From: a virus
Strand: one strand, 5' to 3'
Virus genome (UHGV): UHGV-2137483
DNA length: 10,960 nucleotides
The notes under the pieces are model-generated. The model saw only the letters and a list, made by a program, of their open reading frames with translations. It was not told the DNA's origin and did not search any database. The position numbers and the translations under genes were made by a program. Shown here piece by piece: positions 1-10,960 of this stretch. Within the stretch, counting starts at the first letter, position 1. Every line of letters begins with the position of its first letter.

Positions 1-1
1 G

Positions 2-589
2 GTCGATGGCCTGAACTTTGCTGCTCAGTATCAGGGTAAAAATGACCGCACTGACGTAACTGAAGCCAATGGTGATGGTTTCGGTTTCTCCACTACTTAT
101 GAGTATGAAGGATTCGGCGTGGGTGCAACCTATGCTAAATCAGATCGCACTGACGGTCAGGTCGCCTATGGTAAGAGCAAATTCAATGCCTCCGGCAAAA
201 ATGCGGAAGTATGGGCTGCAGGCCTGAAATATGATGCGAACAATATCTATCTGGCTACCACATATTCTGAAACTCAGAATATGACCGTTTTTGGTAATAA
301 CCATATTGCAAACAAAGCACAAAACTTTGAAGCAGTAGCACAATATCAGTTTGACTTCGGTCTGCGTCCATCTGTTGCTTACCTTCAGTCAAAAGGTAAA
401 GACCTTGGTGTTCATGGTGACCGAGACTTAGTCAAGTATGTCGATGTCGGTGCTACTTACTACTTTAATAAAAACATGTCCACTTTTGTTGATTACAAAA
501 TCAACTTAATTGACGATAGTAAGTTTACCAAAACAGCTGGTATTGATACCGACGACATCGTCGCTGTAGGTCTGGTTTATCAGTTCTAA
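2..589 (+). CDS. nmpC: outer-membrane porin, OmpC/NmpC family, C-terminal ~195 codons (5' end lies outside the window)
   Basis: Frame is open from position 2 to TAA at 587-589. Translation shows alternating beta-strand pattern and ends in the classic porin C-terminus ...[12 protein letters not shown]. Convergent with Q, as in DLP12-type prophages. Symbol is tentative. Confidence 0.7.
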
Positions 590-610
590 TCTGACTTACG
601 AAAAAGATAT

Positions 611-636
611 GTTGCGGGAGGCTTTGCCTCCGCAAC
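611..636 (-). terminator. long imperfect hairpin, candidate minus-strand terminator downstream of Q (tR'-like)
   Basis: gttgcgggaggc / ttt / gcctccgcaac: about 11 bp stem with a one-base bulge. On the minus strand a T5 run (601-605) follows after a 5-nt spacer, so geometry is not canonical. Confidence 0.3.
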
Positions 637-727
637 ATATAAGTGGAGCCCTCAAGCCACTTCCTTTAGAAGCACTACCTTGCTTCTTACTATATAAACC
701 TTCTGTTATATATTACCCTTTATTTTG

Positions 728-751
728 GGGGCGTTTCCACGCCCCATTTTT
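728..751 (+). terminator. intrinsic terminator-like hairpin plus T-run
   Basis: ggggcg (728-733) / loop tttcca / cgcccc (740-745), followed by ttttt (747-751). Lies between the porin stop and the Q stop. Confidence 0.4.
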
Positions 752-777
752 AATAACTTTTAGTAAACAATTGCATA

Positions 778-1161
778 TCAATTAGAATTATTAGCAACGA
801 TATCCATATCTAACCGGATATCTAATGCCATTAACATCCCTTCAATTATGCCCTCAGCCTTCTGTAACCTTTTCCCGATATAACCATCCGAGCAGCAATG
901 CTTACTTGCCAGTGACATGAATGTCATACCACATACATAATAATCTACTAATAAATCGTGTAAATCGCTGTTGTTCTTTTTCAGACGGGCCATGCACCCG
1001 CAAATGATCATCGCGTCATCGTCACAACATTGCGGGCGAGATTTTACTTTTGAAGGAATTAATCCCTTAAAACCGGCGGCAATGGACGACCAGGTCACAT
1101 CTTCATGATTATTAGCCGCCCACGCACCCCAACGCTCAAGAACCATCTGAATATCACGCAT
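778..1161 (-). CDS. Q: late-gene antitermination protein Q (QuuD / phage 82 type)
   Basis: Translation [26 protein letters not shown]...[18 protein letters not shown]... matches the Q antiterminator family as I recall it. ATG at 1161-1159 is preceded by GGAG with a 7-nt spacer; the ORF-track TTG start at 1176 is probably too far upstream. Confidence 0.85.
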
Positions 1162-1246
1162 CAACTTACTCCACAAAAATCAGACCAGAACGCCAATTAC
1201 AAGCAAAAATCAACAAAACAGTATTAGTTGATTGTTATCTCTGACT

Positions 1247-1387
1247 TCATACTCCTGTTCCTGTCAGGGTTTTGGCGTAATTCTTCAGTATTCGGTAATC
1301 GGTCAAAACAGAACCGAGGAAACGATATAAGCGCAGACGCCCCCAGCGGTGGCGAAGAAGTTCTGCCATATTAAACTCAAACATCAT
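1247..1387 (-). CDS. ylcG: small DLP12-type prophage protein YlcG (46 aa)
   Basis: Below the ORF-track length cutoff. Translation [46 protein letters not shown]. Its ATG overlaps the rusA stop (ATGA at 1384-1387). Confidence 0.55.
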
Positions 1388-1746
1388 TCATTCCCCATTT
1401 CGGTGATGGTCAGTTCCAGCCTCCCACCTTTGGTAACAGGCATCTTCACAACGCGGTAATCAACGACCTGAGCATCATCCAGCCAGAAACCTGCTTTAGT
1501 GAGTGCGTCAAAAGCGGCTTTTTGCAGATTATCCAGGTCACGGCGACGGCGATCCGGCATGTGGCACTCAATGCGGATTTTCACAGGCATAGCCAGGCCG
1601 ATATCCAGCATTGCGTTTTTAATGATTCGGGCGACGTTATCGCGGTATGCCTGCCCCTCTGCGCTGACGTGCGTGCGCCCGCGATTATGGCGGTAATAGC
1701 GATTATTGCTCGGAGGCCAGGGTAATGTGATGCTGTAGGTATTCAC
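1384..1746 (-). CDS. rusA: Holliday-junction resolvase RusA
   Basis: Full-length translation [34 protein letters not shown]... matches RusA as I recall it. Start codon is GTG (1746-1744), overlapping the upstream stop as GTGA. Confidence 0.9.
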
Positions 1747-1871
1747 GCCTTAATAACCCCCTCTTTCAGCCACATAACCTGTGTTCTCGCCATACCTTCC
1801 AGCGCGCATTCTTTTGCATATGCAGCATCGACTTGCTTGGCATGCCCTTTACCGGCAATCTTCTGTATGCG
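1746..1871 (-). pseudogene. ybcO: 3' remnant of a ybcO-like (DUF1364) nin-region gene
   Basis: In-frame translation ...[32 protein letters not shown] matches the YbcO C-terminus from memory. The frame is closed upstream by TAG at 1874-1872 and no frame encodes a YbcO-like N-terminus. Confidence 0.45.
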
Positions 1872-1952
1872 CTAAACCTAGATAGAATCCACTCTGTGCA
1901 CATTGAAGCCCGCTCTATGCTTTCTTTCAGGTATTGAAGGGATTGAGATGGG

Positions 1953-2300
1953 CTAAGCATTATTGGCCTCCTGCATCAGGAGAAAGACAATCATGGCGGC
2001 GCGGAGAGGTCTGGTATCAAATATTGGGCTTACGCCTTTTGCATCCACACACCATTCAGTTAACTGGTCTAAGATAGAAATCCTGTATTTCTCAATAATC
2101 GGCCATGAAGCGCTCGGATCATTGCAGTAGTCAGGCAAATGATTTAATGGCTCAAAAGTTGTATCAGCATTTCCGTAATACCATTTGTTGGTGTTATTCC
2201 CTGATGTTTCCGGTTTACTTGCCCAAAGGCCTTTAAAAATTATGTCTCCTACCATTCTGTTAATTTCAAAATCACTTAACTGTGAATAATCCATTGTCAT
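1953..2300 (-). CDS. hypothetical nin-region phage protein (~115 aa)
   Basis: [39 protein letters not shown].... ATG at 2300-2298 overlaps the ninE stop (ATGA); a second ATG follows at 2294. Family not recognised with confidence. Confidence 0.6.
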
Positions 2301-2473
2301 TTCCTCGCACGATATCTTAGCCACCGGATATCCCACAGGTGGGCTGTGTAATTGAAGGTTTTTACGTCAGATTCTTTTGGGATTAGCTTGCGTTTATTTC
2401 TGGAGCGTTTCGTTGGAAGGTATTTGCAGTTTTCGCAGATTATGTCGGTGATGCTTCGTCGCTGTCGTCTCAT
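2297..2473 (-). CDS. ninE: NinE
   Basis: Translation [58 protein letters not shown] matches lambda NinE as recalled. ATG overlaps the methyltransferase stop (ATGA at 2470-2473). The ORF-track N-terminal extension is rejected. Confidence 0.75.
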
Positions 2474-2997
2474 GCAGCCCTCCTGACGCCCTGCCCGATC
2501 GCCATCAATGCCGCTTTGGATACGGTAGTAAACATCCGTCGAGGACTGATGAACGGTCGCCAAATCAGCAGCATGGAGCCTTTGCTGTTTCCCTTCTTCT
2601 CCAGCCCTGTCGATGGTTCGATAAAATTAATCCGTCCATCAGTGATAATACGAACTTCGTCAACACTCTCCAGAGCCTTGCTGAACCATCCGACAGACAT
2701 ATCCTCTGGCACAAGCATCACTACCGTCTGTCGCTGTTGTATACACTGCTCAGCGGCTTTTTCCACCCACGGCCTGATATTGCTGTACGGTGGGTTATTC
2801 CAGATTGCACCGTGGCTTACCCACTCAGAATTGAGCGCGTCGTCGTCCTCAGTTAGCCAGTGAGCGCACAGAGCATTTTTGTCGCTCGCTGCCGAATCCA
2901 GCCAGAATCCAAACTCAATATCCAGTGCATCAAAAAGCCAAAGCGGCGTTTGCCAGCAGTCCTTGTCGTGTGCTGGCGTATTTGATTTGATAGTCAT
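2470..2997 (-). CDS. phage orphan DNA N6-adenine methyltransferase (Dam-like)
   Basis: Translation [26 protein letters not shown]... contains the catalytic NPPY motif (..[10 protein letters not shown]..) and the N-terminal WQTP block typical of phage Dam-type enzymes. ATG at 2997-2995 overlaps the ninB stop (ATGA). Confidence 0.85.
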
Positions 2998-3434
2998 GCA
3001 GCCCGATCTCCCCATCGCGCTTTCCATTCGAGAGCCAGTCGCGCTTCGTCTGACCACTTAACGCCACGCTCTGTACCGAATGCCTGTATAAGCTCTAATA
3101 GCTCCGCAAATTCGCTTACACGCATCCTGCTGGTTGACTGGCCTATTACCACAAAGCCATTCCCGGCAAGGTTAGGAACAACATCCTGCTGCTTTAATGC
3201 TGCGGTAAACACACACTTCCAGCTTTCTGCATCCAGCCAGCGACCATGCCATTCAACCTGACGAGAGACGTCACCTAAGCAGGCCCATAGCTTCCTGTTT
3301 TGGTCTAAGCTGCGGTTGCGTTCCTGAATGGTTACTACGATTGGTTTGGTTGGGTCTGGAAGGATTTGCTGTACTGCGTGAATAGCGTTTTGCTGATGTG
3401 CCGGAGATCGAATTTCAAAGGTTAGTTTTTTCAT
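2994..3434 (-). CDS. ninB: recombination protein NinB (Orf)
   Basis: Translation MKKLTFEIRSPAHQQNAIHAVQQILPDPTKPIVVTIQERNRSLDQNRKLWACLGDV... is near-identical to lambda NinB as recalled. ATG at 3434-3432 follows a G-rich Shine-Dalgarno. Confidence 0.9.
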   Translation of the reverse strand: MKKLTFEIRSPAHQQNAIHAVQQILPDPTKPIVVTIQERNRSLDQNRKLWACLGDVSRQVEWHGRWLDAESWKCVFTAALKQQDVVPNLAGNGFVVIGQSTSRMRVSEFAELLELIQAFGTERGVKWSDEARLALEWKARWGDRAA

Positions 3435-3450
3435 GACTTCCCTCTCCCCC

Positions 3451-3482
3451 AAATAAAAAGGCCTGCGATTACCTGCAGGCCT
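3451..3482 (-). terminator. intrinsic terminator between ren and ninB (tR2-like)
   Basis: 8-bp perfect stem aggcctgc (3459-3466) / gcaggcct (3475-3482) with an 8-nt loop. On the minus strand it is followed by a T-rich run (complement of aaataaaaa, 3451-3459). Confidence 0.6.
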
Positions 3483-3507
3483 GTTATTAGCTCAGTGATG
3501 TAGATGG

Positions 3508-3798
3508 TCATCTTTTAACTCCATATACCGCCAATATCCGTTTCATCGTGGCACTCTGGCGACACTCCTTAAAAATCAGGTTCGTGCTCATCTTTCCTTC
3601 CCGTTCTTCCTTGGTAGCAAACCGGTAATACACCGTTCGCCAGACCTTACCTTCGATAACCAGAAGACCTGCCCGTGCCATTTTAGCCGCGGCCTGATTT
3701 ATGCTGGTTACTGTTGCGCCTGTTAGCGCGGCAACGTCCGGCGCACAGAAGCTATTATGCGTCCCCAGGTAATGAATAATTGCCTCTTTGCCCGTCAT
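3508..3798 (-). CDS. ren: Ren
   Basis: 96-aa translation MTGKEAIIHYLGTHNSFCAPDVAALTGATVTSINQAAAKMARAGLLVIEGKVWRTVYYRFATKEEREGKMSTNLIFKECRQSATMKRILAVYGVKR matches lambda Ren as recalled. ATG overlaps the P stop (ATGA). Confidence 0.85.
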   Translation of the reverse strand: MTGKEAIIHYLGTHNSFCAPDVAALTGATVTSINQAAAKMARAGLLVIEGKVWRTVYYRFATKEEREGKMSTNLIFKECRQSATMKRILAVYGVKR

Positions 3799-4496
3799 AC
3801 ACTTGCTCCTTTCAGTCCTAACTTAGCTTTAATTTCTGCGATCTTCGCCAGCGCCTGAACACGATTTAGAGGTCTGCCGCCCATGACAGGAAGTTGTTTT
3901 ACTGGTTCAGGTATCGTCTCACCACGGTTAATTCGCGCTGTCATACAGGTCAGTTCATCGGCAGCCTTGCGTCGTAATTCCGCGTCAGTCAGCGCATTGG
4001 CCCGCATGTTCTGGTACAGGTTGGTAACCAGCCAGTAGTGCGCGTTCGATTTCCACGGATAAGACTCTGCATCCGGATACAGGCCTCGCTTCCGGCAATA
4101 CTCGTAAACCATATCAACCAGCTCGCTGACGTTTGGCAGTCCGGCGATAACGGATGCTTCTTCCCGGCACCATGCAACAAACTGCCCGGGTGATGGCAGA
4201 AATGGTCGATTCTGCCGACGGGCTACGCGCATTCCTGCGTTAACCTGTTCCATTGTGGTGATCCCGTTTTCCCGGAAAGCCAGAACCCACTGGCGGCGGA
4301 TTTCGTTCAGTTCGTTCTGGTCACGGTTAGCCAGACTCGCCGGGAAAGTTGCCAGTAACTGGCTGAACACACCGTTGATGATCTGCGCTACCTGCTGTAC
4401 CTGCGGCTTTTCGTCGTACTGTTCCGGCATGTTGTTGGCGATCCGACGCATCTGCTCACGGTCAAAATTAACCATCTGTGCGGCGATGTTTTTCAT
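3795..4496 (-). CDS. P: replication protein P (DnaB helicase loader)
   Basis: 233-aa translation MKNIAAQMVNFDREQMRRIANNMPEQYDEKPQVQQVAQIINGVF... is near-identical to lambda P as recalled. ATG overlaps the O stop (ATGA). Confidence 0.95.
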   Translation of the reverse strand: MKNIAAQMVNFDREQMRRIANNMPEQYDEKPQVQQVAQIINGVFSQLLATFPASLANRDQNELNEIRRQWVLAFRENGITTMEQVNAGMRVARRQNRPFLPSPGQFVAWCREEASVIAGLPNVSELVDMVYEYCRKRGLYPDAESYPWKSNAHYWLVTNLYQNMRANALTDAELRRKAADELTCMTARINRGETIPEPVKQLPVMGGRPLNRVQALAKIAEIKAKLGLKGASV

Positions 4497-5392
4497 AAAT
4501 CCACCCCGTAAATCCAGTCAGTGTTTGTCAGGTCGAGTTTTGGTTTGCAGGCTGTCACACCTGCCTGTTGCTTGTTACGGTTGATTTCGAGCTGGGTCCA
4601 CTTGTCGCGGAGTTTGGCCGGGCTCAGCACGTTACCGGACCAGAAGTTGTCCTGGCATGCCCAGCGGAACAGTACACACATGTCGCGATGGTTACGTCCG
4701 TCACGTTCACGCATCAGGCGGATATCGTTAGCCCACCCTGCAAAATTCGGTTTTCTGGCTGATGGCGCGATGGTCTTCACCATGTCAAACATCCATTCTG
4801 CGGCGGTCAGGTCTTCTGCTGTCCCCCACTTGCTGCCGCTCTGAATTGCAGCATCCGGTTTCACCACAGAAAGGTCGTTTTCTGGCTGGTCAGAGGATTC
4901 GCCAGAATTCTCTGACGAATAATCTTTTCTTTTTTCTTTTGTAATAGTGTCTTTTGTGTCCCCCTGTTTTGAGGGATAGCAATCCCCCAATTTGAGGGAT
5001 GTTTTATCCCTCGTTTTAGGGGATTTTCCCTCGTTTTGAGGGATACACCATTCTGAGATGTTTTTATTTGGTCCAAACATGCCGCCTTGCTGCTTGATAA
5101 TATTCATTCTGACGAGTTCTAACTTGGCTTCATTGCACCGTTTGACGGGTAACTTTGTAATCTCGCTAAGTTGAGAATCGGTGATTCTGTCCATTGGTTT
5201 ATTCCATCCATAGGTTTTACGCAGAATGGCAAGCAGCACTTTAAACTGTCGCTTGGTCAGATCTGCGCCTGAATAAGCCTCAAGCAGCATATTTGATAGT
5301 CTGGCGTAACCATCATCGAGATCTGCCACATTACGCTCCTGTTTGGCAAAGTTACCTCTGCAGAAGTTGAGTATTTTTGCTGTATTTGTCAT
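4493..5392 (-). CDS. O: replication initiator O
   Basis: 299-aa translation MTNTAKILNFCRGNFAKQERNVADLDDGYARLSNMLLEAYSGADLTKRQFKVLLAILRKTYGWNKP... matches lambda O as recalled. The ori iterons lie inside the gene, as in lambda. Confidence 0.95.
   Translation of the reverse strand: MTNTAKILNFCRGNFAKQERNVADLDDGYARLSNMLLEAYSGADLTKRQFKVLLAILRKTYGWNKPMDRITDSQLSEITKLPVKRCNEAKLELVRMNIIKQQGGMFGPNKNISEWCIPQNEGKSPKTRDKTSLKLGDCYPSKQGDTKDTITKEKRKDYSSENSGESSDQPENDLSVVKPDAAIQSGSKWGTAEDLTAAEWMFDMVKTIAPSARKPNFAGWANDIRLMRERDGRNHRDMCVLFRWACQDNFWSGNVLSPAKLRDKWTQLEINRNKQQAGVTACKPKLDLTNTDWIYGVDL
4915..5043. repeat. ori-lambda-type replication origin: four ~18-bp iterons plus adjacent AT-rich region, inside O
   Basis: Four tandem copies of tCCCyc-N-ttGAGGGA at about 4959-4976, 4982-4999, 5006-5023 and 5027-5043. 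The AT-rich tract gaataatcttttcttttttcttttgtaatagtgtcttttgtg lies at 4915-4958. Confidence 0.85.
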
Positions 5393-5401
5393 AATGACTC
5401 C

Positions 5402-5478
5402 TGTGGATTGATCCAGTAATGACCTCAGAATTCCATCTGGATTTGTTCAGAACGCTCGGTTGCCGCCGGGCGTTTTTT
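5402..5478 (+). ncRNA. oop: oop antisense RNA with promoter pO and terminator
   Basis: Terminator at 5453-5478: cgctcgg / ttgccg / ccgggcg then tttttt, which I recall as the lambda oop terminator. Candidate promoter TTGAGT (5367-5372), 17-bp spacer, CATAAT (5390-5395) gives a ~77-nt RNA antisense to the cII 3' end. The 5' end is an estimate. Confidence 0.65.
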
Positions 5479-5716
5479 ATTGGTGAGTCCATCAAGCGCA
5501 TACTTAAAAGCCCTGCTAACTGATGTCTGATGCCATTCCGAAAGCACACAAGACCGAAGCAATAAATCTCCAGTCCGTTCTGCTTATCTTCGATTCATGA
5601 CAGCCAATCATCTTTGCCAGACCGCGCTGGGTAATAGCTGACAGATTGATAAGTAAATCTGTTTCTGCGCGATCAACGTCACGCTGTGATAGTTTGCTGT
5701 AACTTGTTCTTTCCAT
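5425..5716 (-). pseudogene. cII: cII-like transcriptional activator, reading frame broken by a frameshift
   Basis: From ATG 5716-5714 the frame reads MERTSYSKLSQRDVDRAETDLLINLSAITQRGLAKMIGCHESKISRTDWRFIASVLCAFGMASDIS then stops. The +1 frame continues ...EWHQTSVSRAFKYALDGLTNKKRPAATERSEQIQMEF to TGA at 5427-5425; the last ~20 residues equal the lambda cII C-terminus as recalled. Confidence 0.6.
5694..5707 (+). promoter_or_regulatory. candidate CII-binding repeat of a pRE-like promoter (TTGC-N6-TTGT)
   Basis: ttgc tgtaac ttgt lies antisense within the first codons of cII, the position of pRE in lambda. No convincing -10 element was found. Confidence 0.3.
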
Positions 5717-5801
5717 TTCTTAAGATTTCCAATAGTGAATAGTTAGTTGAAAGGTATGCGTGGAAACGCATATGGCCTTAGTTGGTCAGATATCTTGGAA
5801 C

Positions 5802-5847
5802 TCGCTTTTCAGCGACGTAGGACGAATGTCCGTTGTTACAAAGAGCG
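5802..5847 (-). promoter_or_regulatory. nutR (boxA plus boxB hairpin)
   Basis: Minus strand reads CGCTCTTT (boxA, 5847-5840), 24 nt, then tcgc-tgaaaa-gcga hairpin (boxB, 5815-5802). Almost the same arrangement recurs at nutL. Confidence 0.55.
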
Positions 5848-5857
5848 GATCCGCTTA

Positions 5858-6073
5858 TTAAGCGGCTTTGTGTTCCGGCGGGAACACGTCATCAAGACTG
5901 ACTTTTGCGCCTAACTTGTTTAGGCACGCAACAAGAGCACGGCATGTTTTAAGGTCTGGGAAGCGACGACCAGATTCCCAATGTCCGATAGCTCCCTGTG
6001 TGCATCCAACTGCCTTAGCAAGTGTTGTTTGAGAGATATTCAGTGACTCTCGATATTTTCGTAGGTTGCTCAT
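5858..6073 (-). CDS. cro: Cro-like HTH repressor (71 aa)
   Basis: Translation MSNLRKYRESLNISQTTLAKAVGCTQGAIGHWESGRRFPDLKTCRALVACLNKLGAKVSLDDVFPPEHKAA. ATG at 6073-6071 is preceded by GGAGGG (6082-6077). Divergent from cI across the operator region; the ORF-track 128-aa extension is rejected. Confidence 0.8.
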   Translation of the reverse strand: MSNLRKYRESLNISQTTLAKAVGCTQGAIGHWESGRRFPDLKTCRALVACLNKLGAKVSLDDVFPPEHKAA

Positions 6074-6100
6074 ATGCCCTCCATAGTAAACACGAATAAA

Positions 6101-6150
6101 AAAATACAATATGTACTTTGCGAATACAAGTAAAAATACACATTGTGCAT
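6101..6150. promoter_or_regulatory. OR operator region with candidate PR (minus strand) and PRM
   Basis: Minus-strand PR candidate: -35 TTGTAT (complement of 6124-6129), 17-bp spacer, -10 TATTTT (complement of 6101-6106). Operator-like element tacaatatgtactt at 6105-6118 and a related tacacattgtgcat at 6137-6150. The same element recurs at OL. Confidence 0.5.
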
Positions 6151-6190
6151 GGATGGTTCCAGTACAGAGCGTAATAATAAGGACATGAAA

Positions 6191-6844
6191 ATGAAATGGT
6201 ATGAACTGGCTAGATCCAGAATGAAAGAGCTCGGCATAACTCAAGAGAAGTTAGCCGAAGAGCTAGGTATGACGCAGGGTGGGATTGGACACTGGTTGCG
6301 CGGATCTCGTCATCCATCTCTTAGTGATATTGGTGTGGTGTTTAAATACCTTGGTATTGATAACATATCATTCAACCACGACGGGACATTTTCACCTGTT
6401 GGCGAATACTCATCGGCCCCAGTTAAAAAACAATATGAGTACCCTGTTTTTTCTCATGTTCAGGCTGGGATGTTCTCTCCAGAACTCAGAACCTTTACCA
6501 AAGGCGATACGGAGAGATTGGTAAGCACAACCAAAAAAGCCAGTGACTCTGCATTCTGGCTTGAGGTTGAAGGTAACTCAATGACCGCACCAACAGGTTC
6601 CAAACCCAGCTTTCCTGACGGGATGTTAATTCTGGTTGACCCTGAGCAAGCTGTTGAGCCCGGCGATTTCTGCATAGCCAGACTTGGTGGTGATGAATTT
6701 ACCTTCAAGAAACTGATCAGGGATAGCGGTCAGGTGTTTCTACAGCCACTAAACCCACAATACCCAATGATCCCATGCAATGAGAGTTGTTCCGTTGTGG
6801 GGAAAGTTATCGCCAGCCAATGGCCTGAAGAGACGTTTGGGTGA
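6191..6844 (+). CDS. cI: CI prophage repressor: non-lambda HTH N-terminal domain, lambda-like S24 autocleavage C-terminal domain
   Basis: C-terminal ~130 residues ([26 protein letters not shown]...[90 protein letters not shown]) match lambda cI as recalled. N-terminal HTH ([23 protein letters not shown]) is different. Start is uncertain: ATG 6191 follows AAGGA by 7 nt; alternatives at 6185, 6149 and TTG 6143. Confidence 0.9.
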
Positions 6845-6883
6845 TGAAACCACTTTTATCTACAATTTACAGGGCGGTAAACA

Positions 6884-7441
6884 TTGGCAAAAATAGATGA
6901 TTATCAGCCAAGCCAAGTAGAAGTTGATAAAGTACTTTATTGTAAAAAAATAGTTAACTTTTCTGGCGTTAAATGGAAACAGAAACCAAGTCGCTCTGAT
7001 ATGTGGCTACAAGCCCATATCATCCCCTTGGATGAGGATTGTATACCTATACAAGGGCTAAAGTTTGAACTGAAATGGAAACCAGATCAGGATTCAGAAC
7101 CTGATGACCCGATTTCTTACCCTAAAATAAATATTATTGCTTTCTATCATAACAAGAGGGTTTTCGCGGTAGATACCTATCACTTTGACAAACACACGAA
7201 TAGTTACAAGGTCGATCATCCGAAGTACCAAGATATCATTTACGGTGCTCACTACCATGTATACTATGAAGAAGCTGGATACTATAGTGATAGAATAGCG
7301 TTTCCAATCGAAGATGACATAAACCCAGATGACCTGGTAGGGTATTGGAATTACTTCTGTAAACATCTGAACATAACTTACTCTGGGAGAATACCTTTAC
7401 CGCTTGAAGATGAGTCGGGGCAAATGGGGTTTGGAATATGA
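6884..7441 (+). CDS. hypothetical protein, gene A of a two-gene cassette in the rexAB slot (185 aa if TTG start)
   Basis: ORF begins 39 nt after the cI stop with no intervening hairpin. First in-frame start is TTG 6884; the first ATG is at codon 40 (7001). No hydrophobic transmembrane stretch is evident. Contains a His/Tyr-rich segment (GAHYHVYYEEAGYY). Visibly AT-rich. No family recognised. Confidence 0.65.
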   Translation: MAKIDDYQPSQVEVDKVLYCKKIVNFSGVKWKQKPSRSDMWLQAHIIPLDEDCIPIQGLKFELKWKPDQDSEPDDPISYPKINIIAFYHNKRVFAVDTYHFDKHTNSYKVDHPKYQDIIYGAHYHVYYEEAGYYSDRIAFPIEDDINPDDLVGYWNYFCKHLNITYSGRIPLPLEDESGQMGFGI

Positions 7442-8190
7442 TGTGCTCAACAGTGATCTCACAACTAGGTTTCGAATGCCATCCAATAGGCAAGACCTTG
7501 AGAATTATCAGTCCATTCACTTACTGTGATGATGGAGAGCATGTCGGTGCCTTTATCCGTGAAGTCAATGGTAGGTATTTAGTTAGTGACAGATGCGATG
7601 CCTTAATGAATATGGAGGCAAGAGGGATCTCGCTTACCAAAAAACGACTTGATGAGATACGACAATTACTGCTTAAAGAAGGCGCAGAACTCAATGCTCG
7701 AGGAGAAATCATTGCTTGGGCAACAGAAAAGGATGTCGGTGCGATTACATCGAACATAATTAGAGCTGGTATACTCGCATCAACTTTGTCGTTAGACTGG
7801 TATCAGCCAGTTCAAGCTGAAAAGTTTGAAAGTATGGTTATTGATTATCTATATCACACAGAGCTTAGAGACGCACTTTCTCTTCGTGAAAACGTATATG
7901 GCTTGAGTGGACATCAAATTACCGTCCCTGTAACAATAAAAACCGACATACCTAAATACGTTTTTACATCAAGCGTGAAACACGGAGGAAGCTGGAATAG
8001 TGCTTACTCATTGCTTGGGAAACTAATTGATCTTAAAGCTTCAAGTGAGGAGTATAACAACAGATTTGTTGTTATAGACAGCGAAGCAATTGGTGATCAA
8101 ATGCAACAACTCTCCTTACTCTTCCATGAATCAAGCCAAGTTCTACCATTCTCCAAAAGAGAGACTTGGGTTAAGAGACTTGCAGCATAA
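7438..8190 (+). CDS. hypothetical protein, gene B of the cassette (250 aa)
   Basis: ATG 7438 overlaps the gene A stop (ATGA, 7438-7441), indicating translational coupling. Long uninterrupted ORF ending TAA 8188-8190, immediately before a strong terminator. No obvious transmembrane segment. No family recognised. Confidence 0.75.
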   Translation: MMCSTVISQLGFECHPIGKTLRIISPFTYCDDGEHVGAFIREVNGRYLVSDRCDALMNMEARGISLTKKRLDEIRQLLLKEGAELNARGEIIAWATEKDVGAITSNIIRAGILASTLSLDWYQPVQAEKFESMVIDYLYHTELRDALSLRENVYGLSGHQITVPVTIKTDIPKYVFTSSVKHGGSWNSAYSLLGKLIDLKASSEEYNNRFVVIDSEAIGDQMQQLSLLFHESSQVLPFSKRETWVKRLAA

Positions 8191-8193
8191 TAC

Positions 8194-8220
8194 AACCCGG
8201 CCTCAGCGCCGGGTTTTCTT
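8194..8220 (+). terminator. intrinsic terminator ending the cI-cassette transcript (tImm-like)
   Basis: aacccggc (8194-8201) / loop ctcagc / gccgggtt (8208-8215), followed by a T-rich tail ttttcttt. Confidence 0.65.
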
Positions 8221-8408
8221 TGCCTCACGTTCGCCCACCTAAAAACACATAACCAATTATATTTATTGAAAAATAAATAGATGCAACCCACTAAACCACG
8301 CAATTCTGATCTCTCCTTACATCGCCGAGGCAATACATCCACGCTAAAAAACAACACTATTAAATACAAAGCGTTATAAAAAACCACGCCAACTTACAAC
8401 AAATTGTA

Positions 8409-8437
8409 TTGATCTTGTAAAGTACATATCGTACTAT
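8409..8437 (+). promoter_or_regulatory. pL candidate with OL operator
   Basis: -35 TTGATC (8409-8414), 17-bp spacer, -10 TACTAT (8432-8437). Palindromic operator AGTACatatcGTACT at 8421-8435 matches the OR element with the same spacing to the -35. Confidence 0.5.
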
Positions 8438-8482
8438 TTAACCGTCAGCAGGACGCTGGAAGCCAAATGGAACAGACTGGCA

Positions 8483-8528
8483 GGCTCTTTAAACAACGTC
8501 GACTCTCGACTACGTGGCTGAAAAGCCA
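8483..8528 (+). promoter_or_regulatory. nutL (boxA plus boxB hairpin)
   Basis: GGCTCTTT (8483-8490), 24 nt, then tggc-tgaaaa-gcca hairpin (8515-8528). Same architecture and spacer landmarks (AACAACG, CTACG) as nutR. Confidence 0.55.
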
Positions 8529-8626
8529 GATCACCCAACCACATAAGCTGTGGGATGCAATGCCGAAGCAACCGTCTCAGGAGGAGCTTCGAGATTGCAT
8601 CGCCAAAGTTTATTCGGGAGGAATCC

Positions 8627-8899
8627 ATGTCCAGAAAAACAGAATTTAAAGGCACCGCAGCTTCTCGCCGTAGAGCTCGTCGCGCAAATCTGCAAAGTCA
8701 GGAGGCGATCAGCTCCGACAAGCTACACAGGCCAACCCCTTCACGAGTGGTCTTGCAATGCAAGCTCAAACCAGCAATGAGAGCAGAAGTGATAACTCTG
8801 ACAACGTTGACCAGAAAATATGAAGGTTCAACTTGTCTTCCGAACGTAGCTCTTTACGCGGCAGGCTACCGGAAATCAAAACAACTGACGGCGAGATGA
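8627..8899 (+). CDS. N: N-like transcription antiterminator (P22 gene-24 type), 90 aa
   Basis: ATG 8627 preceded by GGAGG (8617-8621). N-terminal arginine-rich motif GTAASRRRARRA; C-terminus ...VALYAAGYRKSKQLTAR resembles P22 gene 24 as recalled. The ORF-track upstream extension from 8555 is rejected. Confidence 0.75.
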   Translation: MSRKTEFKGTAASRRRARRANLQSQEAISSDKLHRPTPSRVVLQCKLKPAMRAEVITLTTLTRKYEGSTCLPNVALYAAGYRKSKQLTAR

Positions 8900-8915
8900 T
8901 AAATTCATTTGCTAA

Positions 8916-9532
8916 TTACTTGTTTTTGCCATGCTTATCCTGAGCGATAAGTTCATCCATAAGGCTGTCTGCCTTCCCGGCAAACCTAATGTAGCACTCA
9001 TGTCTATAGCTTTCAGGGATAACGAAACGGTCGGTATCAGGATATCCAACAGCAGGAGGCCTTCGAACGAGGAGTCCTTTTTTGAGCAATGAAATTGATT
9101 CATGAGNNNNNNNNNNNNNNNNNNNNNNNNNNATTCATGAGCGCCCTTTTCCGTTTGTAGCTGGTTATTAGCGGCTACAGCGAATGCCAAATACGCTCTT
9201 TCTCCAAGAGTTAACGAATCAAACAAATCTTGCACATATTTTTCTTCTTTAGATTTGCGCTTCTGAGCAGCGAATACCTCAATTCTTTCAGTCACAGCGT
9301 GATAAGCGGAATTAACAACGCCGTTAAGCACATAGCTAACGCAAAACAACAGGATGTAATACATCCAGTAATGAGGAAGGATTTCTGGACTATGCAGGTT
9401 TATCCATTCTTTTACGCTTACCGGCATAACAATAATCAATATGATCAGGATGATTAGCATATGAATCAACTGTTTAAGTGTCATTCCTTGCAGGAAAAAA
9501 TGCATTAGTTCCTGCCACCATGAGTTGTTCAT
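8916..9532 (-). CDS. sieB: superinfection exclusion protein SieB-like membrane protein, interrupted by an assembly gap
   Basis: N-terminal part MNNSWWQELMHFFLQGMTLKQLIHMLIILIILIIVMPVSV... is hydrophobic. The C-terminal part is in a different frame from the ORF-track call and reads ...HESISLLKKGLLVRRPPAVGYPDTDRFVIPESYRHECYIRFAGKADSLMDELIAQDKHGKNK to TAA 8918-8916. Convergent with N, as lambda sieB. Confidence 0.65.
9107..9132. other. assembly gap (26 N), probably artefactual
   Basis: Run of N. The 9 bases attcatgag occur on both flanks (9098-9106 and 9133-9141). Confidence 0.95.
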
Positions 9533-9675
9533 CGGCGTTTCTCTTTTGCTCTCTGTAGGGGTGAATAGAGTTTATCCGATTTCTCGTTGTAGGGGTACAC
9601 GAGAACCACCGAGCCTGATGTGGTTAAAAGACAGGCACAATCTTTACTACCGCAATCCACTATTTAAGGTGATAT

Positions 9676-9762
9676 ATGGAAGAAGAATTTGAAGAGTTCG
9701 AAGAGCATCCTCAAGATGTGATGGAACAATACCAGGACTATCCGTATGACTACGACTATTGA
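9676..9762 (+). CDS. small acidic ORF (28 aa) at the position of lambda orf28
   Basis: ATG 9676 preceded by AAGGTGA. Translation MEEEFEEFEEHPQDVMEQYQDYPYDYDY. Same length and position (overlapping the ral start) as lambda orf28 as recalled; sequence identity not verified. Confidence 0.45.
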   Translation: MEEEFEEFEEHPQDVMEQYQDYPYDYDY

Positions 9763-9946
9763 TACAAATCAATGGTGTGGACAATTCAAACGATGCAATG
9801 GATGCAAGCTGCAATCGGAATGCATGGTTAAGCCTGAAGAAATGTTTCCTGTAATGGAAGATGGGAAATATGTCGATAAATGGGCAATACGAACGACGGC
9901 AATGATTGCCAGAGAACTTGGTAAACAGAACAACAAAGCTGCCTGA
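9746..9946 (+). CDS. ral: restriction alleviation protein Ral
   Basis: 66-aa translation MTTTIDTNQWCGQFKRCNGCKLQSECMVKPEEMFPVMEDGKYVDKWAIRTTAMIARELGKQNNKAA matches lambda Ral as recalled. Confidence 0.85.
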   Translation: MTTTIDTNQWCGQFKRCNGCKLQSECMVKPEEMFPVMEDGKYVDKWAIRTTAMIARELGKQNNKAA

Positions 9947-10082
9947 TAGTGGCCTTTATTTTTGGCATAAATAACAGAATAAACACTGCACTGTGTATTC
10001 ATTCCAACGAGTGAATACACGGAGCAATGTCGCTCGTAACTAAACAGGAGCCGACTTGTTCTGATTATTGGAAATCTTCTTT

Positions 10083-10108
10083 GCCCTCCAGTGTGAGGGC
10101 GATTTTTT
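10083..10108 (+). terminator. intrinsic terminator between ral and ea10
   Basis: gccctc (10083-10088) / loop cagtgt / gagggc (10095-10100), then gatttttt. Confidence 0.55.
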
Positions 10109-10128
10109 ATCTATGAGGATATGAATAG

Positions 10129-10497
10129 ATGTCAAACATCAAAAAATACATCATTGATTACGACTGGAAAGCATCAATAGAAATTGAAATTGACCATGAC
10201 GTAATGACAGAGGAAAAACTTCACCAGATTAATAATTTCTGGTCAGACTCTGAATACCGACTCAATAAACACGGCTCTGTATTAAATGCTGTATTAATCA
10301 TGCTGGCGCAACATGCTCTGCTTATAGCAATTTCAAGCGACTTAAATGCATATGGTGTTGTGTGTGAGTTCGACTGGAATGATGGAAATGGTCAGGAAGG
10401 ATGGCCTCCAATGGATGGTAGTGAAGGAATAAGAATTACCGATATCGATACATCAGGAATATTTGATTCAGATGATATGACTATCAAGGCCGCCTGA
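10129..10497 (+). CDS. ea10: early protein at the position and length of lambda Ea10 (122 aa, acidic C-terminus)
   Basis: ATG 10129 preceded by GAGGA. 369-nt ORF between ral and cIII, the size and place of lambda ea10 as recalled. Sequence identity to Ea10 not verified. Confidence 0.55.
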   Translation: MSNIKKYIIDYDWKASIEIEIDHDVMTEEKLHQINNFWSDSEYRLNKHGSVLNAVLIMLAQHALLIAISSDLNAYGVVCEFDWNDGNGQEGWPPMDGSEGIRITDIDTSGIFDSDDMTIKAA

Positions 10498-10569
10498 GCG
10501 CGGCGTTACCGCATACCAATTACGCTTCACTCGAGGCGTTTTTCGTTATGTATAAATAAGGAGCACACC

Positions 10570-10734
10570 ATGCAATATGCCATTGCAGGGTGGCCTGTTG
10601 CTGGCTGCCCTTCCGAATCTTTACTTGAACGAATCACCCGTAAATTACGTGACGGATGGAAACGCCTTATCGACATACTTAATCAGCCAGGAGTCCCAAA
10701 AAATGGATCAAACAATTATGGCTATCCAGACTAA
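10570..10734 (+). CDS. cIII: CIII (FtsH inhibitor, protects CII)
   Basis: Below the ORF-track cutoff. ATG 10570 preceded by AAGGAG. Translation [54 protein letters not shown] matches lambda CIII as recalled. Confidence 0.9.
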   Translation: MQYAIAGWPVAGCPSESLLERITRKLRDGWKRLIDILNQPGVPKNGSNNYGYPD

Positions 10735-10846
10735 ATTCACTATCGCCACTTTTATTGGCGATGAAAAGATGTTTCGTGAGGCCGTCGACGCTTATAAAAA
10801 ATGGATATTAATACTGAAACTGAGATCAAGCAAAAGCATTCACTAA
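10703..10846 (+). CDS. kil: Kil (host cell-division inhibitor)
   Basis: 47-aa translation [47 protein letters not shown] matches lambda Kil as recalled. Overlaps the cIII 3' end in another frame, as in lambda. Confidence 0.85.
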
Positions 10847-10921
10847 CCCCCTTTCCTGTTTTCCTAATCAGCCTGGCATTTCGCGGGCGATATTTTCACA
10901 GCCATTTTCAGGAGTTCAGCC

Positions 10922-10960
10922 ATGAACGCTTATTACATTCAGGATCGTCTTGAGGCTCAG
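10922..10960 (+). CDS. gam: Gam (RecBCD inhibitor), first 13 codons only; continues beyond the window
   Basis: ATG 10922 preceded by AGGAG. Translation [13 protein letters not shown] matches the N-terminus of the short form of lambda Gam as recalled. Confidence 0.75.

Follow-up and report, generated by a model that had tools for sequence, protein, structure and literature searches.

The single run of Ns in the window, the whole 10,960-nucleotide stretch of viral DNA analysed here, is very probably a "negative gap", that is, a scaffolding artefact, and the superinfection-exclusion gene sieB in which it lies would be intact. The value of this reading is practical. Taken at face value, the record would yield a frameshifted pseudogene in place of sieB, or a 206-residue product with X residues, and the prophage would be scored as being without an intact superinfection-exclusion gene. 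Once the 35 extra positions are read as padding plus a repeated contig end, an ordinary and fully known gene is restored.

The gap in sieB and its flanking repeat

Reading of the sequence together with a script located the only N-run of the window at positions 9107-9132, with a length of 26 N. The same nine bases, ATTCATGAG, stand on both sides of it: the left copy (9098-9106) makes up the last nine bases of the left contig, and the right copy (9133-9141) the first nine bases of the right contig. Both copies align to one and the same segment of the prophage of Escherichia coli ABU 83972 (positions 12103-12111 of our reference sequence L002), and the references are contiguous across the N-run. 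The two copies are the only ones in the window on either strand, and a repeat scan recovered the pair at a spacing of 35 nt. In shuffled windows 0.20 copies are expected, and two or more copies were found in 3 of 200 shuffles. By arithmetic, nine bases on either side of a gap would be identical by chance with a probability of 4^-9, or ~4e-6. This low probability and the shuffle counts indicate that the duplicate is real.

The mechanically called open reading frame that crosses the gap (8912-9532, minus strand, 206 aa) contains X residues and departs from the SieB frame past the gap, the C-terminal frame of SieB being found as a separate 57-aa open reading frame at 8916-9089 on the same strand. 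The original prediction had described the 9-bp duplicate around the 26-N gap, a 206-aa frame that runs wrongly after the gap, and a continuous minus-strand reading once the N-run and one copy of the repeat are taken out. The sequence read and the script confirmed the duplicate at both coordinates; the wrong frame proved correct as described, with the 57-aa frame as the right one; and the collapsed minus strand reads ...QLQTEKGAHESISLLKKGLLVRRPPAVGYPDTDRFVIPESY... to the TAA at 8918-8916, exactly as claimed. The same prediction expected the collapsed sequence to align to the sieB genes of related prophages, and it is DNA-identical to the gene for WP_001066176.1. The junction word of the collapsed sequence is GAAATTGATTCATGAGCGCCCTTTTCC.

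As written, sieB (super-infection exclusion protein B) occupies 8916-9532 on the minus strand, from an ATG at 9532-9530 to a TAA at 8918-8916, and is split by the gap. Removal of the 35 positions, namely 26 Ns and one copy of the nine bases, leaves 582 bp that encode 193 aa, the length of the sieB product of ABU 83972 whose DNA the collapsed gene matches base for base. Profile search revealed that the collapsed protein matches the Pfam family SieB (PF14163) over residues 24-146, with a score of 77.7 bits (cut-off 26) and an E-value of 9.1e-22. The collapsed coding sequence also matches the 582-bp sieB genes of the lambda-type phage Lambda_2E9, of HK140 and of VT1-Sakai, with a DNA identity of ~95% to lambda-type sieB. 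Moreover, the gene sits between N and ral on the opposite strand in the early-left region, which is its canonical place and orientation. By these matches, the window gene is assigned as an ordinary, already known member of the SieB family.

Restoration of the frame was considered as sole proof of the collapse and rejected, since deletion of the Ns only, with both copies of the nine bases kept, likewise leaves an open frame, of 196 aa, in which the residues HES are duplicated. The collapse is favoured because the collapsed sequence is identical to the references, not because the frame is restored.

Related prophages and contiguity across the gap

The whole window is the early region of a lambdoid prophage, with the gene order OmpC-annotated porin, Q, nin genes, P, O, cII, cro, cI, N, sieB, ral, cIII, kil and gam. 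The prophage is nearly identical in E. coli CFT073, ABU 83972, ATCC 25922 and many other strains, and with Nissle 1917 the match extends over at least the cII-cI part. Compared to ABU 83972, the window shows three differences: the gap, a 5-bp deletion at 5518/5519 and a substitution at 6509. On one side of sieB lies the N antitermination gene (8627-8899, plus strand, 90 aa), the position of which was transferred from 11632-11904 of L002. It is convergent with sieB and ends 16 bases from the sieB stop, and its product in related contigs belongs to the family N_peptide (PF25694). On the other side of sieB lies the antirestriction gene ral (9746-9946, plus strand, 66 aa), an open reading frame whose counterpart in CFT073 and ABU 83972 bears the annotation Ral family protein. 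Scans for promoters, terminators and repeats around sieB gave nothing further of relevance.

The flanks of the gap are contiguous in these relatives. The left flank (window 1-9106) corresponds to positions 3001-12111 of the ABU 83972 sequence L002, with differences only at 5519 and 6509, both far from the gap, and the right flank (window 9133-10960) corresponds to L002 12103-13930 with 100% identity. The two flanks overlap on L002 by exactly nine bases (12103-12111), and CFT073 gives the same result. Against both strains, the flanks are reference-identical right up to the Ns, with no foreign bases at either edge. A 1001-base query spans 966 bases in all 25 of the listed E. coli genomes with 100% identity, and the 35 missing bases equal 26 + 9. 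The best phage records, among them ev017, PhiR57_1 and ev207, also give a 966-base span for the 1001-base query, and the 35-base difference likewise recurs in the lambda-type and Stx-phage alleles at ~95% identity.

We further searched 5,426 complete E. coli genomes with a 2000-base query from which the Ns had been removed while both copies of the nine bases were kept, so that a genome bearing the duplication would rank first at 100%. The best complete genomes reach 99.5-99.6%, each top match needs a 9-nt gap, and none of the best-ranked matches carries the two copies in this context. The ATCC 25922 group tops this search only through the element ISEc52, located between sieB and ral, and has an intact sieB. 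In viral, genome and metagenome contigs, the gap pattern gave no match, be it with the N-run or with a gap of 1-30 bases, and searches for exact copies of the X-containing SieB products (206 aa and 197 aa) were likewise without a match. SieB is intact in every contig shown that carries the cI variant of the window and reaches sieB, its length being 193 or 184 aa according to which start was called. In the complete genomes of this lineage, sieB is found at one place only.

The 5-bp difference from ABU 83972 falls in cII (CDS 5516-5716, minus strand), where the window is without five bases at 5518/5519 (ATCGG on the plus strand). These bases are present in all 15 of the listed best matches among the 5,426 complete E. 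coli genomes (1266-base span for a 1261-base query). Their loss creates a TAG at the junction and shortens CII from 98 aa to 66 aa; it is either a real mutation or an assembly error. A 41-mer across the deletion had no match in the collections searched, and the truncated 66-aa CII was matched only in contigs that break off within cII. Nine of the ten contigs shown (L003-L011) end at the same cII base, position 8522 of L002, which lies inside the five bases missing from the window, and the tenth ends two bases away from it. The cII-ending contigs differ in sample and assembler, with Logan and k119-named ENA contigs among them; because the end recurs across assemblers, it suggests a recurrent mosaic junction or a divergence point.

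The substitution at 6509 falls in cI (CDS 6149-6844, plus strand), where A replaces the G of ABU 83972 and changes codon 121 of the CI repressor from Ala to Thr. At least 23 public contigs encode the Thr121 variant of the protein. Strain CU39ES-1, whose match is better by one difference than those of the other listed genomes, probably shares this variant. The cI gene is annotated as an incomplete pseudogene in CFT073 and is intact (231 aa) in ABU 83972 and the window. The CFT073 sequence (L001, NC_004431.1) contains isolated single Ns at 7611-7737 in the cI region and at 13773-13877 in the exonuclease gene that directly follows bet. At 10557-10615 on the plus strand of the window, just upstream of and into cIII, the Rfam family Lambda_thermo (RF01804), the cIII thermoregulator, matches with 88.5 bits (E = 5e-21), as expected in a lambda-like early-left operon. 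The window starts inside the OmpC-annotated porin gene and ends inside gam, both in prophage modules, and part of it matches these genomes at a second place. On account of these ends, the second match and its odd length, the window may represent a complete short-read scaffold with repeats at its borders.

Proposed origin of the gap and alternative explanations

We propose that two short-read contigs both terminated inside sieB, and that their ends shared only the nine bases ATTCATGAG, which would be too few for an assembler to merge. Read-pair links would have placed the two contigs side by side, and the scaffolder would have written a mis-estimated 26 N where the true distance was -9, thereby printing the shared nine bases twice. 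The real genome would then hold one copy of ATTCATGAG and nothing else in the gap, and the 193-aa sieB of this lambda-like prophage would be whole. We infer both this route of the assembler and the lack of extra sequence in the source strain. The original prediction of an artefact from overlapping contig ends is supported by the nine reference bases that the flanks share and by the agreement of the collapsed coding sequence with a known sieB.

Independent public short-read contigs (Logan, ENA and NCBI drafts) also often end in this part of the gene. Exact look-ups of 5'-truncated SieB fragments found contig ends at 9074, 9076, 9096, 9097, 9104, 9105 and 9106, with no foreign bases at these ends, and five of the ten contigs shown in one look-up end exactly at 9106, the end of the left flank of the window. 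The idea that 9104-9106 is a unique break point was rejected: the look-up at 9104 gave 17 contigs, compared to 7 and 19 in control look-ups at 9074 and 9095, respectively, which shows that breaks are spread over the stretch. An alignment of alleles places the gap within the most divergent patch of sieB, where TTGATTCATGAGCGCCC in alleles of the CFT073 type is replaced by TTGCTTCAGGGCTTCCC in those of the lambda, HK140 and VT1-Sakai types; to the right of this patch, the alleles are almost identical. Being the most divergent patch of the gene, it offers a possible reason for contig breaks in sieB, and the assembly graph would presumably branch here if more than one lambdoid prophage or strain was present in the sample. 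Two points weigh against the artefact. As sieB is single-copy in the lineage, a break in a pure isolate would need low coverage, or else the sample was mixed; and the window has a further private anomaly in the 5-bp deletion in cII, so that its source is more than a plain copy of the references. As to the number of Ns, in L033, a scaffold from an ENA metagenome that covers the same prophage, 10 N at positions 343-352 stand for a single base, corresponding to window 8732 inside the N gene, and the N-run lengths in such scaffolds are thus not real lengths.

It is unlikely that real sequence is hidden in the gap, whether a mobile element that duplicated 9 bp of its target or an insertion of 35 bp, and that sieB is thereby knocked out in this strain; if true, the prophage would have lost its superinfection-exclusion gene naturally. 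The target duplications of IS1, IS10, IS50 and IS903 are 9 bp long, and contigs often break at IS elements that are present in many copies. An element such as IS1, IS10 or IS903 might have inserted into sieB with a 9-bp target duplication and stayed unassembled behind the Ns, leaving sieB disrupted, a reading that we regard as quite unlikely and that, even so, would mean no more than the routine disruption of a gene at the level of the strain. The exact 9-bp direct repeat that abuts the gap has the length typical of IS1, IS10, IS903 and IS50 duplications, and a contig break in a gene that is single-copy in the complete genomes of the lineage needs some cause. Elements do land in the prophage of relatives, as seen from an IS3-family element in CFT073 and ISEc52 in ATCC 25922. 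The former lies between ninB and ren and is absent from the window (~3471-3475), and the latter is absent from the sieB-ral spacer of the window (~9533-9745).

However, contigs that stop at repeats normally extend into them, whereas neither edge of the gap shows a non-reference base. The terminal inverted repeats of an IS element are absent directly inside the duplicated bases, where Ns adjoin both copies, and unrelated assemblies have contig ends at the same bases without IS sequence. In addition, the query with both copies of the nine bases had no gap-free top match among the 5,426 complete genomes, and sieB is intact in all close relatives. The same insertion was not seen among the best complete-genome matches, and the IS elements of relatives lie elsewhere. 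The target consensus of IS10 is NGCTNAGCN; by inspection, the nine bases at the gap are unlike it. A run of 26 N is also far below any IS length (at least ~770 bp), which is a weak argument given that N-run lengths can be wrong.

We consider it very unlikely that the Ns stand for ~26 real bases left unresolved in the assembly, which would make up a 35-bp insertion compared to all relatives, for example a tandem duplication, that frameshifts sieB. By arithmetic, any 35-bp tandem duplication that includes the nine bases would produce the same overlapping flanks plus 26 bases. Such a duplication could defeat a small-k assembler, and 26 N has the look of an estimate, unlike the fixed paddings of 10 or 100 N, for example. 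Against this, an insertion of this kind occurs in no relative in any collection searched, ordinary reads span a 70-bp tandem repeat, and a private duplication is a priori improbable at precisely this position. Moreover, gap-size errors of tens of bases are routine (PMC3504050), as also exemplified by the 10 N in the N gene of the ENA scaffold. Finally, a real in-frame 9-bp tandem duplication (a HES-HES SieB) with spurious N padding between the copies would fit the open 196-aa frame left by N-only removal but is scarcely credible, as the duplication is in no homologue, a 9-bp tandem duplication gives an assembler no cause to break, and two independent oddities would be needed at one base, a rare mutation and a true gap size of zero.

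Comparison with known systems

The window gene shares with the SieB of lambda and P22 the PF14163 domain and the location between N and ral, and it has full-length identity to WP_001066176.1, the SieB annotated in the prophage of CFT073, ABU 83972 and ATCC 25922. Annotated SieB is uninterrupted, whereas the window gene as written has 35 extra positions, which lead to the frameshifted 206-aa product with X residues. In P22, SieB halts macromolecular synthesis midway in the lytic cycle of superinfecting relatives and aborts their growth (PMC10883804).

Similar to the target duplications of IS1, IS10 and IS903, the window has an exact 9-bp direct repeat around an unresolved stretch in a prophage gene. 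It differs from them in having no IS termini at the edges, and 26 N rather than 0.8-1.3 kb between the copies.

The preferred reading places the gap among negative gaps, in which adjacent contigs that should overlap are separated; Sanger validation of PBJelly found overlaps of 1 to 43 bases behind N-gaps (PMC3504050), and ALLPATHS-LG gives negative gap sizes for overlapping contigs (PMC5368935). Most likely, the gap belongs to this well-known class of scaffold artefact, offers nothing new and is not a biological feature. As in the negative gaps of paired-read scaffolds, overlapping contigs are parted by Ns and bases are repeated on both sides, and we see no difference in kind between those gaps and the gap in sieB, the mechanism of which is read here from the sequence pattern alone.
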